From Amoebophrya sp. A120 (lineage: Eukaryota > Protista > Dinoflagellata), in assembly GCA_905178155.1 (NCBI GenBank), contig CAJINV010000025.1, forward strand, positions 338,516-343,747: a stretch of DNA of 5,232 nt, written 5' to 3'. The position numbers and the translations under genes were made by a program. Shown here one piece after another: positions 418 through 5,232 of this stretch. The number at the start of each line of letters is the position of its first letter. Position 1 is the first letter of the stretch. A model generated the notes under the pieces. That model made no database searches, was not told the DNA's origin, and saw only the letters and a program-made list of their open reading frames with translations.

Positions 418-436
418 ATGGTTACGTCTCGTCGTG
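418..436 (+). CDS. Exon 1 (MVTSRR), supplies the start codon
   Basis: ATG GTT ACG TCT CGT CGT G joins in frame to 807 (GA TTG CCC TGC TGG) across the TCGTG direct repeat. ORF 809..2182 otherwise has only a TTG start. Confidence 0.7.
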
Positions 437-3400
437 TATCAACTGCAAATATGTCTGGGTCTGGAAGATTCTGAGATTTGGAATGTACGTTTAGCATGGG
501 GGATAATGTCTGTAATGCATGCCGTAGCATCACAGACTTTTCGAGGGCTTCGCGCTGCCTATTCCGCATGACATCAAATGCCCTAGATCTCCTGCGTCCG
601 AAGCTGCTTGCGGCGACGGTGCAAAGGTTTTTGATGAGGTGCAGGCGGGTATGCATGACAATTGCGCTCTCCGCGTAGCCAAGGGTTGCATAATTCCCTT
701 TGCATATGCTGGTCATGCAATACAAATTTTTTTGGAATCCAAATGGAGCATCACAAGTTCGGATTCTTCCAGACCCAGACGAGACATTTTTGCATTTGAT
801 ATCGTGGATTGCCCTGCTGGGCGATTGCCGTGCTGGTCGCGGTACTAGGGGGAGCTGTCCTTATCGCTGTTGTTGTTACAACGACTGTGGTCATTGTCCT
901 ACAACGGGCAGGGCAGGCAAACGAAAACGAGGAACAACAAGTGTCATGGCCATGGGGGCAGAGGACAAGGCATAATGAAATCCCGACTGGCCGGAGGAAT
1001 CATAATGAAGTCCCGACTGGCCCCCCAGCTGGACTTCGATTGTCATGGCCATGGGGGCAGAGGAGTCATAATGAAATCCCGACTGGCCCCCCACCTGCAC
1101 CACCGCCGCGGCCAGCGCCTGGCCCCCAACCACCTGCACCACCGCCGCGGCCAGCGCCTGGCCCCCAACCTGCACCACCGCCGCGGCCAGCGCCTGGCCC
1201 CCAACCACCTGCACCACCGCCGCGGCCAATAGTACCCCCGTTATCTGCAGACACACAGCTCGTGATCCAGCATGCGGGGCTGAACGCGTTGTGCCAGTCG
1301 CCGGACGTGTTGGAGTGCAGGCAGTGGACGAGGACGCAACAAGGAGGCACGGCTACGGCTAGTCAAGAACATCAAGGCACAGCATCAACTGCTACGACAA
1401 CGAACGCCCCAAGTTCCTCCGACTCGACTTACTATGTGTCCGTCGACATGAAGAAGAATGTTGGCGCTTCTGCAAATAACGGCGCGGACGATGAAGATGG
1501 CTTCACCATTGAACTCGATCTTCCTGCTGGCGTGTTTTACGATGGACGTTATCCGGGTATACCCGCGTACCAGTCGGGCAAGTACATCGTGAGAAGCCGA
1601 AGATTGCGGCCCTCCTATGTCCGGCGCGACCCGGATCTGGCACAGTTCTCTCCCATTCGTTCCCAGCGCATGGGCTGGGCGGACGCAGAGCTTACGCTTC
1701 CCGGCGCGAGGACTAGTACGACGACCGGTTCTACTGCTGGTACTACTGGTGGAGCCATCGATAATAATGCGCCACCAGCAACGACAGCGCCACGACCAAT
1801 AAATACGATCCCAATTTTCCTGAAATTTGACGAGCTCGACTTTCGCAACGATGACCGCGCCAAGGATTTTCTGCACAACGCTGAAAAAATCTCGGATGTT
1901 TGCCACAGGGTTGCGCTGGGTCTTTCCCCGCTCCCAGCATTCCCAAGCCTAGAAAAGGAGTTCGGAAATTATGGTAGTAGCGCCACGACTTCTTCACAAT
2001 GGCAGCCACATGTTCTTGCAGGCGAACGCTTGAGGCGATTGTTTCGGATGCGGCCCGTTCCTGCTCCGGCCATCATCTCCGTAATCGGTCCGCCCGGCAA
2101 AGAGACCGGCTGTTATCCTGTGCAAAAGTATCGTACTCGTAGTAATTGCAGCAGTGCATTACAAATCTTGTTTCCAAGGTAAATCAGCATGACAAATTCC
2201 ATTTGTCACGCTGAGCAAATTTGTCATGCGATTTCTACTAGTACGATACTTTTGCAGTTCATAGCTGTGGCTTTTTGACGATGTTGGAAAAGGCTGATAG
2301 TGACAACGAGTCCTCGCCGTCGCCGGCGTCACCAACTACAACGCCAGCCGCACCTGCTGGACGAGCAAGCAGCCCCGTTCTGGCTCGGCGGTCGATGCTA
2401 TCCCAGTGCACAACCTCGTCCCCTCTCCCTCATTTCTCATGCAAAATACCAATTCCACACGTTCTCTCCTGACACTATTAATACTTATAACAAGTTCTGG
2501 TAGCTCAAATAGCACTATAATCCAGTGCAAATTTTTTGTCATGCAGAACCGGCATTCTTGCTGATGCTTGTATTGCCGTTCATGCAATGCAAATGAGGGG
2601 GAGGGCGGGGAGTTGTGCACTGTCATAAATGCCCTTGAGCGACGTGCTGCGGCGAGTCAAGGAGGCCCGAGAAAGTGCAGGCGGCTATCAAATGTAAAAA
2701 TGTCTGGGTCTGGAAGATGCAACTTGTGATGCTGCATTTGGATTCCAGAAAAATCTGTATTGCATGAGTTGTACTAAAGGGAGTGCAATTTTTGCTACGC
2801 TGAGAAGGCATTTGTCATGCGGAATAGGCATCAAGAAGTCCTCAGAAAATCTGTATTGCTAGGGTATGCATCACAGATCGATCATGGCTCGTCATGCAAA
2901 ACATGCATGACAAGTGTCAGAATCTTCCAGACCCAGACATTTTTGCATTTGATAGCGGCGCCACAACTACATTTCTGCAGCGGCCGGGGGCAGCAGCACC
3001 AGCACCAGCAGCGGCTCGACCACCAGCGAACACAACTACTATGTTGACACAAGCCTCGACTGCGGCAGATATTGACGACGCCCTGCAGGCTCTCTTTACG
3101 GACACGTCGACTACCGACTTTGTGCAGCAGCTGTACACGGAGCTGGTGCGAAACTTGCGGACAATGGACCGGTCGGGTTTTTTATACATCGACGTGCACG
3201 GCTTGAACACCTTGGTGCACTTTGAGCTTGTAGAAGTAGCAGACTCCTCGCAGCCCCGGGCCCCACCTGTCGCGGCTCCCGTTGTACAACTGCGGTATGA
3301 ACTGTCCCTGGTAGATTACAAAACCCTGTTGTACATGCGGTCTGCGCAGAAAGGTTTTGGTGGGCGGGATGACAGCGGCTTGGTCCTCAATAACACGAGC

Positions 3401-4097
3401 GGACGAGACAGCAGGCTGCTGCACGAAAAACTTCTTTTCGAGGTGGCGAGGACAGCGCCAACGCATTCCACAGTAACCTCCAACCCGGTTCTTGCACCTG
3501 ATTTGCACAGACCGCGGCCACAGACCGTACGAACCCTTTTCGCTTTGACGAAGTTACCAACCCAATGGGGTGGCGCACGTGGCCACATCAAGAATTTGTT
3601 TTATCCCCTGCGCCACAGTCGCCGCGATCCGAATAATGCGGGCCGATCCTGTAAAGCCTATGGTGACGAACTGTATCCCTGGGACCAATGGGCTCCGGAC
3701 GCGGTCCCAACGGGCCCGATGGCGGACGAGCCGGTTGCGTACGACCTGCTTAGTGGCATCATGGAGGACATAGCTTTCGGTTACGCGATTGTGGGCCACG
3801 CGTTCAAGGACCTCCTCACCTTTGAACAGAAAGAAGAGATCGAGATAGCCGTGCTAGAGGAAGACATTGCCGCCGGCGTCTACCAGAACATTCCAGCCGA
3901 CGCGCNACCTCCTCACCTTTGAACAGAAAGAAGAGATCGAGATAGCCGTGCTAGAGGAAGACATTGCCGCCGGCGTCTACCAGAACATTCCAGCCGACGC
4001 GCATTACGCGGCCCCGGCGGGAGGACAGCCTAGGGAGGAGATGGACCGGAACCGCATACGAGAGCGGAATAGCTGCCTAAGGGAGCGCAGCCGGTAA
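418..4097 (+). CDS. Reconstructed 5-exon gene, ~849 aa hypothetical membrane-anchored protein with Pro-rich and Thr/Ala-rich linkers; join(418..436,807..2113,2269..2398,2633..2685,2960..3905,4003..4097)
   Basis: Removing four TIR elements plus one TSD copy each gives 2550 nt (850 codons including TAA 4095-4097) with no internal stop. ATG 418 is the first ATG after an in-frame TGA at 394. Junction peptides are MVTSRR-G-LPCW, KETGC-GFLTML, ARRSM-P-LSDV and ESAGG-ATTTF. The N-terminus MVTSRRGLPCW precedes a long hydrophobic stretch (AIAVLVAVLGGAVLIAVVVTTTVVIVL). I recognise no domain. Exon borders can slide within the TSDs. Confidence 0.8.
437..801. mobile_element. MITE-like / introner element, family A copy 1 (365 bp), putative non-canonical intron 1
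   Basis: Left TIR 437-468 TATCAACTGCAAATATGTCTGGGTCTGGAAGA. Right TIR 765-801 TCTTCCAGACCCAGAC(GAGAC)ATTTTTGCATTTGATA. TSD TCGTG at 432-436 and 802-806. Confidence 0.92.
807..2113 (+). CDS. Exon 2: transmembrane helix, SWPWGQR/HNEIPTG repeats, Pro-rich repeats, Thr-rich linkers and an unrecognised globular region
   Basis: Corresponds to ORF 809..2182. The last 22 codons of that ORF (YPVQKY...LFPR) are read-through into the TIR element that starts at 2114. Confidence 0.85.
942..1092 (+). repeat. Coding direct repeats: SWPWGQR x2 and HNE(I/V)PTG x3
   Basis: TGTCATGGCCATGGGGGCAGAGGA at 942 and 1041. CATAATGAA(A/G)TCCCGACTGGCC at 971, 1001 and 1067. Confidence 0.9.
1085..1228 (+). repeat. Coding tandem repeat, 36-39 bp unit (GPQPPAPPPRPAP), about 3.5 copies
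   Basis: Near-identical units containing CCTGCACCACCGCCGCGGCCA four times. Length differences are whole codons. Confidence 0.95.
2114..2263. mobile_element. MITE-like / introner element, family B (150 bp), putative non-canonical intron 2
   Basis: 37-bp imperfect TIRs 2114-2150 and 2227-2263 (30/37 by hand), with a perfect 17-bp core TGCAAAAGTATCGTACT (2121-2137 / 2240-2256). TSD GCTGT at 2109-2113 and 2264-2268. Internal hairpin 2184-2214. Confidence 0.9.
2269..2398 (+). CDS. Exon 3 (GFLTMLEKADSDNESSPSPASPTTTPAAPAGRASSPVLARRSM)
   Basis: GC-rich segment between two TIR elements. It is in the frame of ORF 2275..2472 and in phase with exons 2 and 4. Confidence 0.75.
2399..2627. mobile_element. 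MITE-like / introner element, family C (229 bp), putative non-canonical intron 3
   Basis: 37-bp imperfect TIRs 2399-2435 and 2591-2627 (29/37 by hand; core CAGTGCACAAC / GTTGTGCACTG). TSD GATGC 2394-2398 / AATGC 2628-2632, one mismatch. Confidence 0.85.
2633..2685 (+). CDS. Exon 4, 53 nt (PLSDVLRRVKEARESAGG)
   Basis: Open, GC-rich segment between two TIR elements, in phase on both sides. Too short for the ORF track. Confidence 0.75.
2686..2954. mobile_element. MITE-like / introner element, family A copy 2 (269 bp), inverted relative to copy 1, putative non-canonical intron 4
   Basis: TIRs 2686-2718 and 2922-2954 (33 bp, one mismatch). TSD GCGGC at 2681-2685 and 2955-2959. Subterminal 2721-2766 is the reverse-complement homologue of about 714-759 in copy 1. 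Confidence 0.93.
2960..4097 (+). CDS. Exon 5, C-terminal region (ATTTFLQR...CLRERSR*)
   Basis: ORF 2894..3922 minus its element-derived first 22 codons, continued by the 3' part of ORF 3867..4097 once the 96-bp duplication and N (3906-4002) are collapsed. Confidence 0.8.
3810..4002. other. 96-bp exact tandem duplication separated by one N; probable scaffolding artefact
   Basis: 3810-3905 is identical to 3907-4002, with N at 3906. Collapsing it restores the reading frame (...IPADAHYAAP...). Confidence 0.88.
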
Positions 4098-4890
4098 GTA
4101 GCGAATGTGACCCATTGCGTGAATGCGAAGAGGACGAAAGCTGTGATCGTGTATTATTCAAAGTCTAATTGGAATTTCGAAACTCTAGAGATACACAAGA
4201 AGATGACCGTGGTCGACGATTCTTATATTACTATTTTTAAAAATGCGACATTTTGATTTTGGTGCTTGGAAGTAGCAGTATGCTATTACGATGCAGGATT
4301 TCTTTTTGTTAATCCGCGTCGGGGTTGAAAGCGGTGCTTTCTTCTCGCGAGGTTTGCGCTACTTCAGAAAAGCACATTGTTGCTAAACACAACAATAACG
4401 CGACATAAGAAAGATGAAACGTGTATGATTTTTACTTTTTCCCATTGGCCAGCTCCTTGGCCGTTTTTCAGAAAGGGAGCGAAGAGACTGAGTAGCGAAT
4501 GTGCTGACCCACACGACCCATTGCGTGAATTATGCGGAGACGAAAGCCGTGATGGTGTATTTTGAGGATTTTTGTTAATGGTATCAAATGTAAAAATGTC
4601 TGGGTCTGGAAGAATGCATGTTTGTCATGCTTGTCTGGCATGACTCTGAAATCTGTCGTGCACGTTACCCAAGAGCGCCACTTTTCTGTCATGCAGAAAC
4701 GCAGTTTGTCATGCAGAATAGGCAACACCTAGAAGCTCAGAGACTTCTCATGCTGAGCCAGCACCTGCGGCGTCCTCATGATATGCCACCCAGCATCACA
4801 AGTTTCCAGACTCAGACATTTTTACATTTGGTAAATGGACGTCGTCAACGATTTCGGTTGAAAGCTGAGCTTTCTTCTCGCGGTGTTTTT
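4097..4890. repeat. Diverged direct duplication in the 3' flank (about 4097-4355 vs 4491-4890)
   Basis: Shared blocks in the same order: AGTAGCGAATGTG, GACCCATTGCGTGAAT, GACGAAAGCYGTGATSGTGTATT, TTTTTGTTAAT, GGTTGAAAGC and GCTTTCTTCTCGCG. Confidence 0.8.
4582..4833. mobile_element. MITE-like / introner element, family A copy 3 (252 bp), downstream of the stop codon
   Basis: TIRs 4582-4611 and 4804-4833 (30 bp, two mismatches; right end is GTA rather than ATA). TSD AATGG at 4577-4581 and 4834-4838. Confidence 0.92.
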
Positions 4891-4942
4891 TGTTGAGGAT
4901 TACTATTACTATCTATTATATTCATGCGAAAATATTGGTCTA

Positions 4943-5232
4943 GAGAGGGTAAACGAGAGGTGGCCGGGAGGTAAAAAAGAGGTCAAAAGAGGTCAAAAAG
5001 AGGGCGACAGAGGTGGAGAGGTGGCGCGGGAGGCAGTTCGAGAGGGTGCGCGAGAGGTGGCGCGAGTATAGCCCGCCGAACCGGTCGCCCTTTAGGGCCG
5101 CTAAGCGCCTCGGAGGGTGCCGAGAGGTAGAAAAGAGTGCGGGCGAGAGGTGGACAGAGGTGCCGAGAGGTTGCGCGAATAAGGGGCGACCTCCCGCGGA
5201 CCCTCTTGGCCACCTCTCGGCCACCTCTGTCG
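4943..5232. repeat. Degenerate ~11-bp GAGAGGT-type minisatellite with an orientation switch; runs off the window end
   Basis: About 16 GAGG cores between 4945 and 5170, mostly 10-12 bp apart, then CCTC cores at 5190, 5202, 5213 and 5224. Confidence 0.8.

Follow-up and report, generated by a model that had tools for sequence, protein, structure and literature searches.

Introner elements without canonical splice ends in a predicted kinase-like gene of Amoebophrya sp. A120

The gene and its inserted elements

The stretch of DNA analysed here, called the window, is 5,232 nucleotides (nt) of contig CAJINV010000025.1 of the dinoflagellate Amoebophrya sp. A120. Its plus strand holds a gene for a predicted kinase-like protein whose coding sequence is interrupted by four inserted elements, E1 to E4, and a fifth element, E5, is located downstream of the stop codon. 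We describe these elements, the evidence that they are likely removed exactly, and how such a removal might work.

Exon 1 (418-436) contains the ATG and joins the frame of exon 2 (807-2113) only with E1 and one repeat copy removed; its boundary was set after the left repeat. Exon 2 contains a hydrophobic anchor, a Pro-rich repeat and the start of the kinase-like region. Exon 3 (2269-2398) and exon 4 (2633-2685, 53 nt) are based on a public gene model, P0001, and the last exon (2960-4097) has its stop at 4095-4097 if a duplicated segment is counted as one copy. The duplication consists of an N at 3906 followed by an exact repeat copy of 3810-3905 (together 3906-4002), with a loose end at 3907 in sequencing run X6.

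In the sequence as assembled, with the N and the second copy, the joined frame terminates after 823 amino acids (aa), and an 849-aa frame is obtained only with one copy of the 96-nt duplicate. Because two paralogs, P0002 and P0003, have C-termini like the 849-aa version, with the duplicate single, we regard it as an assembly artefact. The single open reading frame of about 849 aa proposed in the initial annotation, which did not mention the N or the duplicate, holds for a single copy and fails for the sequence as assembled.

E1 (437-801, 365 nt) is flanked by the repeat TCGTG (432-436 and 802-806), E2 (2114-2263, 150 nt) by GCTGT, E3 (2399-2627, 229 nt) by the imperfect pair GATGC/AATGC (4/5), E4 (2686-2954, 269 nt) by GCGGC and E5 (4582-4833, 252 nt) by AATGG. 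The boundary repeat is 5 bp at 5/5 elements, with a single mismatch at E3, and a 5/5 match is seen in 0.12% of random pairs within the window. E1 to E4 are each bounded by TAT..ATA, and removal of the element plus one repeat takes out 370, 155, 234 and 274 nt, respectively. These positions and lengths are those given by the initial annotation.

Over 37 nt, the inverted ends match at 30 positions in E1 when gapped (21 ungapped), 30 in E2, 29 in E3 and 33 in E4. When folding is compared with shuffled sequences, E1 to E4 have z-values of -5.9 to -10.7, each with a long terminal stem. A search of Rfam returned hairpin-level matches only, all under the gathering score.

E1, E4 and E5 form one family, with E1 in the opposite orientation to E4 and E5 (220/264 aligned bases are identical between E1 and E4, on the minus strand); E2 and E3 belong to other families. 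The motif TAT + 7 nt + AAA is found at both ends of E1, E2 and E4 and at the left end of E5. E3 begins with TAT but is off the AAA register, and the right end of E5 is TAC.

Sliding the junctions of E1 to E4 through their repeats gives no GT-AG, GC-AG or AT-AC in any register on the plus strand, as had been claimed from the first inspection. Assignment to the major (GT-AG) or minor (AT-AC) spliceosomal introns was rejected, as the exact cut does not have their canonical terminal dinucleotides.

Gene model, reads and host protein

GSA120T00023842 (P0001), a protein of 700 aa from Amoebophrya sp. A120, matches the last exon with 100% identity, which bears out the earlier guess of an Amoebophrya-type introner. 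P0001 agrees residue for residue with junctions 2-4 (E2, E3 and E4). It contains the junction peptides ETGCGFLTMLEK, SMPLSDVLR and ESAGGATTTFLQR, all of which had been predicted.

P0001 is without exon 1, the E1 junction and the membrane anchor. Further, it departs from the joined frame by a jump from 1082 to 1229 and another across 3810-4003. Both jumps fall on arrays of tandem repeats (1083-1228 and 3810-4003), and in the A120 annotation tandem repeats were masked and boundaries were taken from transcript alignments (Farhat et al. 2021, PMC7789003). The departures therefore look like masking artefacts, which probably also explain the loss of exon 1, E1 and the anchor.

Five relatives were found, all of them A120 proteins. 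P0002 is on a separate contig; P0003, P0004 and P0005 lie together with the gene on one contig of 446,646 nt, and their models are fragments. Across the E2 site the residues of P0002 are the same as in the exact-cut product. The 53-nt exon between E3 and E4 is found in P0005 and mostly absent from P0002, which at 2633-2685 is short by about 15 residues; this could reflect a skipped exon, an error in the model or a true deletion. In metagenome contigs, 0/360 pattern matches were confirmed as relatives of the gene. At 4079-4900 the 3' end of the gene is duplicated in tandem, in degenerate form; the second copy starts at 4473, opens with the C-terminal codons of P0003 and contains E5.

Eight sequencing runs share words with the window, up to a fraction of 0.64, and none of them is on record as RNA; an identical element-free copy is expected to share 0.705. 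For X6 the molecule type is not on record and was guessed to be RNA; this run was examined together with three raw RNA runs that carry the same species label. X6 contigs join 2680 to 2955 at E4 (a skip of 274) and 4576 to 4834 at E5 (a skip of 257). At E2 there are loose ends at 2113 and 2264, consistent with an exact join. At E3 a loose end is found at 2629, with the first base of the left copy of the mismatched repeat retained, so if this contig stems from an element-bearing copy the cut is at least 1 base into the repeat. At E1, one contig stops at 436 with 16 more letters beyond. The E4 join occurs in two forms: one is of the window type, with 49 letters on its shorter side, and the other matches the paralog P0005. 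X6 supports splicing of this gene copy but does not prove it.

Two other observations come from the reads. One X6 contig skips exactly a 176-nt piece between 20-nt direct repeats at 155-350, which contains telomere-like repeats (180-224) and perfect hairpins (240-274 and 279-325); this may be a different element type or a paralog difference. RNA reads of runs X9 and X11 match at 2686-2718 and 2178-2229 with an identical E4-type end or E2-type interior and foreign flanks, and may represent retained elements, pre-mRNA or DNA of other loci.

The predicted 849-aa protein has a short basic N-terminus, one hydrophobic anchor, Pro-rich repeats and a kinase-like region. The predicted single membrane anchor (818-901) is preceded by two basic residues, and its best 19-mer has a Kyte-Doolittle value of 3.05, compared with 1.15 for the next best elsewhere. 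The Pro-rich tandem repeat (1083-1228) has a 39-nt unit and is the array skipped by the public model, and the predicted protein-kinase-like domain extends over exons 2-5 (1793-3769).

ESM Atlas places this region, in both paralogs, with APH/RIO1/Kdo kinase-like proteins (feature scores 0.93 and 0.95); the matches share 137-150 of 256 features and have TM-scores by query of 0.30-0.39. Pfam has no match for two exon pieces or for P0001 and P0002, the sequence search of the PDB gives nothing below an E-value of 0.5, and AlphaFold on a two-sequence alignment reaches a pLDDT of 28.7. A two-lobed kinase fold would have a catalytic Asp/Asn and a metal-binding Asp, and our reading of such motifs in the protein is tentative. 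Based on these predictions we regard the host protein as likely kinase-like and anchored in the membrane, one member of a small tandem family in A120, and for such a parasite protein a lumenal or surface location is likely.

Elsewhere in the window, 110-131, about 290 nt upstream of the ATG, resembles what we take to be the 3' end of the dinoflagellate spliced leader and is possibly a relic leader. The window ends in purine-rich degenerate repeats with inverted arms (4940-5232).

Elements of the E4 family in another assembly

An exact search with the E4 end found 130 loci, all in one other public assembly (JACKZZ01 contigs). Among these loci, chosen by the E4 end, E1/E4/E5-like sequences are present in 117-130, E2-like in 25 and E3-like in 9. 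Complete elements number 114, and 110 have TAY..RTA ends with flanks. In these 110 the 5-bp repeat is perfect in 94, has one mismatch in 11 and is neither in 5; perfect repeats of 3, 4 or 6-9 bp are not found. Inverted ends are perfect over 32 nt in only 11/105 copies. Imperfect ends are therefore typical elsewhere as well, which weakens the earlier argument that decayed elements next to an intact exon sequence point to an expressed gene.

For the frame test, 77 of the 130 loci were used (at least 1,500 nt, overlaps dropped). A finder that uses no family information detects 156 elements in them, versus 1 on the reversed sequence. Removing the element plus 5 nt, compared with plus 3, 4, 6 or 7, makes the open frame longer in 47-52 of 71 loci and shorter in 7-12. 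Among the elements in long frames, 66/75 lack any canonical register, where chance alone predicts 88.5%: canonical ends occur at chance level in this family. The orientation is independent of the host gene, with 15 copies in the same and 18 in the opposite direction (33 strand-resolved copies).

Pfam was run on 62 of 73 junctions and matched 8. At one locus (L022:478-739) an E4-family element splits the RNA polymerase II subunit RPB1 between yeast residues 830 and 832, a site that we take to be in the bridge helix. Exact removal leaves a product collinear with RPB1, while retention introduces 10 stops. No register at this site is canonical, and with any of the six nearest canonical options the protein would lose 1-3 residues or gain 3-4. 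If RPB1 has no further copy, elements of the E4 family must be removed exactly and by a non-canonical cut. Family copies also adjoin domains at L046, L001, L038, L044, L077, L080 and L034; the neighbouring domains are Nramp, ABC transporter, gamma-tubulin complex, OHCU decarboxylase, methyltransferase, EF-Tu-like and scramblase.

Removal of the inserts and known systems

The four inserts belong to the published introner class of A120, and we consider it probable that each is excised exactly from the pre-mRNA together with one copy of its 5-bp duplication, the cut likely being placed by pairing of the inverted ends and not by GT-AG signals. At insertion, a transposase would cut the target with a 5-nt stagger; the duplication is observed and the enzyme is presumed. 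According to the folding prediction, the inverted ends would then pair in the transcript into a long stem, bringing both repeat copies side by side, and a cut at the same position in both copies would restore the sequence that preceded the insertion. This product is seen indirectly for E2-E4, and we infer it for E1. The ends are symmetric, there is no sequence rule and either orientation occurs; therefore the signals should be symmetric too, and this makes the terminal stem the likely positioner.

Several observations weigh against this interpretation. Frame restoration alone follows from any insertion, and the frame test on single elements is weak (48/73 versus 39-41, p 0.05-0.08). Of the 62 junctions tested, only the one in RPB1 has a Pfam match on both sides. 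In 0/3 raw RNA runs are the exons covered (element pieces only), so these runs give no evidence on expression. The E1 join is neither displayed in X6 nor present in P0001; thus, of the exact joins named in the initial annotation, those at E2-E4 are seen as joined forms in X6, with its unrecorded molecule type, and junction 1 has no direct join.

The strongest competing explanation, which we judge improbable, is that the window holds a dead, element-riddled copy of the tandem family, and that the public model and the X6 joins come from paralogs that never carried elements. Paralogs do contribute to X6, where exon differences match P0003 and P0005, two of the three relatives on one contig. The X6 joins could derive from such element-free copies, and paralog transcripts could have shaped P0001. 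An element-free X6 contig at E5 and one upstream each have 4 other letters. Further, the differences in X6 are 9 synonymous and 14 non-synonymous (23 exon sites listed, counted from the 40 of 111 differences shown; p 0.11). However, the joined form at E4 includes the window type, and the gene has taken five insertions and yet has zero stops in 2,547 coding bases. The E4 family also sits in RPB1 and other long open frames, and most A120 introns are RNA-validated and non-canonical (PMC7789003).

An ordinary spliceosome could instead use nearby GT/GC-AG pairs, with a few residues gained or lost. In-frame canonical pairs are indeed available within 60 nt of E1, E2, E3 and E4 (4, 36, 34 and 44, respectively), and E2 has a GT at 2112 and an AG at 2257; therefore sequence alone does not compel non-canonical cuts. 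What favours the exact cut is the public model and the X6 contigs, both of which have it. P0002 matches the exact-cut product at the E2 site, canonical options distort RPB1, and canonical registers are not enriched in the family. Altogether this makes ordinary splicing very unlikely. Slightly less credible still is elimination at the DNA level in some life stage, as for the internal eliminated sequences of ciliates, with one repeat left behind. X6 may be DNA, E5, outside the coding sequence, is also lost exactly, and there are several contigs of similar depth near 25. Against this, the run with the highest share of words comes close to the value for an element-free copy, a result no less expected of RNA, and empty sites are explained more simply by paralogs; moreover, such introns have been validated by RNA-seq against element-bearing genomic DNA (PMC7789003). 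That the open fragments are separate genes, as might be suggested by the fragmentary models P0003-P0005, is the least probable of all and is largely refuted by the collinear paralog: P0001 and P0002 continue across the sites, and the kinase-like match covers residues 226-662 across E2-E4.

If the inserts are excised from the pre-mRNA by pairing of their ends, the candidate catalyst would be a relaxed U2/U5/U6 spliceosome without U1, to which we give slightly better than even chances; otherwise a non-spliceosomal endonuclease-ligase route, by analogy with euglenids, would be the second choice. The spliceosome is put first because Farhat et al. (2021, PMC7789003) report nearly all spliceosomal proteins for A120 and detected no U1 snRNA there. 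The removal mechanism is left open in that paper, and our literature searches turned up no resolved one.

Some clues concern the cut position. According to Table S4 of the same paper, the second base is T in all nine predominant A120 intron classes, the ninth being GT-CG (PMC7789003). This fits a cut after repeat base 4, which would place the first T of the element at +2, and could also come from the aligner. The mismatches per position in 11 mismatched repeats (3, 1, 3, 2, 2) are uninformative on the cut register. On the coding strand, 32/75 elements have G at repeat position 4 and 17 have it at the position mirroring this one (p 0.007, or 0.014 when phase-matched; a post hoc comparison). The 27 elements located outside long frames do not repeat this excess (10 versus 8), and a flanking position has the same count; it is only a suggestive lead.

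More tentatively, and with the odds somewhat against it, we propose splicing by shape: the paired ends would act as a ruler that accepts any orientation or 5-bp target and sets a fixed cut in the duplication, without U1. Our best guess for this route places the cut behind base 4, so that the ends would read NT..NN and a residual preference for G would be left at the last base. If true, the transposon would be nearly invisible to selection, even in the bridge helix of RNA polymerase II, and mismatched duplications like that of E3 would allow genome-wide mapping of the cut from existing RNA data.

The locus offers a handle on the question of how introns without a terminal signal are removed in an organism without a detected U1 snRNA. 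Given the strict 5-bp rule, the indifference to orientation, canonical ends at chance level and the copy in RPB1, the mechanism can be narrowed to a symmetric cut guided by structure. The analysis also corrects the public gene model of a kinase-like protein that is likely anchored in the membrane: both the anchor and the correct C-terminus are missing from the model, probably through repeat masking and an assembly duplicate.

Among known systems, IS3EU DNA transposons share the outermost TAY..RTA bases and long inverted ends (PMC12730594). They were rejected as an identity, having 6-bp duplications and TAYGG..CCRTA ends, versus 0/110 perfect 6-bp and 94/110 5-bp repeats and TATC/TATG here. The introners of Aureococcus, Micromonas and Polarella are likewise transposon-derived, with inverted ends and target duplications (PMC12130899, PMC11282704). 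However, the Aureococcus elements keep canonical splice motifs, in contrast to the chance-level registers of the A120-type family. Nonconventional introns of euglenids also have paired inverted ends, non-canonical junctions and duplication-like repeats, with a mechanism described as unknown; features of their own are CAG/CTG at fixed offsets, a tendency to pyrimidine|purine junctions and exit as full circles (PMC11282704).

The closest system is that of A120 itself, for which Farhat et al. (2021) described introners with TAT + 7 nt + AAA ends and 3-5 nt repeats and counted 29,850 copies that fall into 1,954 families (PMC7789003). The elements of the window have the same genome, ends, 5-bp repeats, hairpin, non-canonical ends and lengths of 150-370 nt, and we see no difference of kind from those described there. 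The suggestion that these families and rules might be new is thereby not supported: the ends, 5-bp repeats and copy number are already there. The element class and the introners of this genome are published and the gene model is largely public, so this is a rediscovery, to which we add junction 1, the anchor, the strict 5-bp rule, the orientation independence and the RPB1 copy; Figures S19-S25 of Farhat et al. may show part of this.

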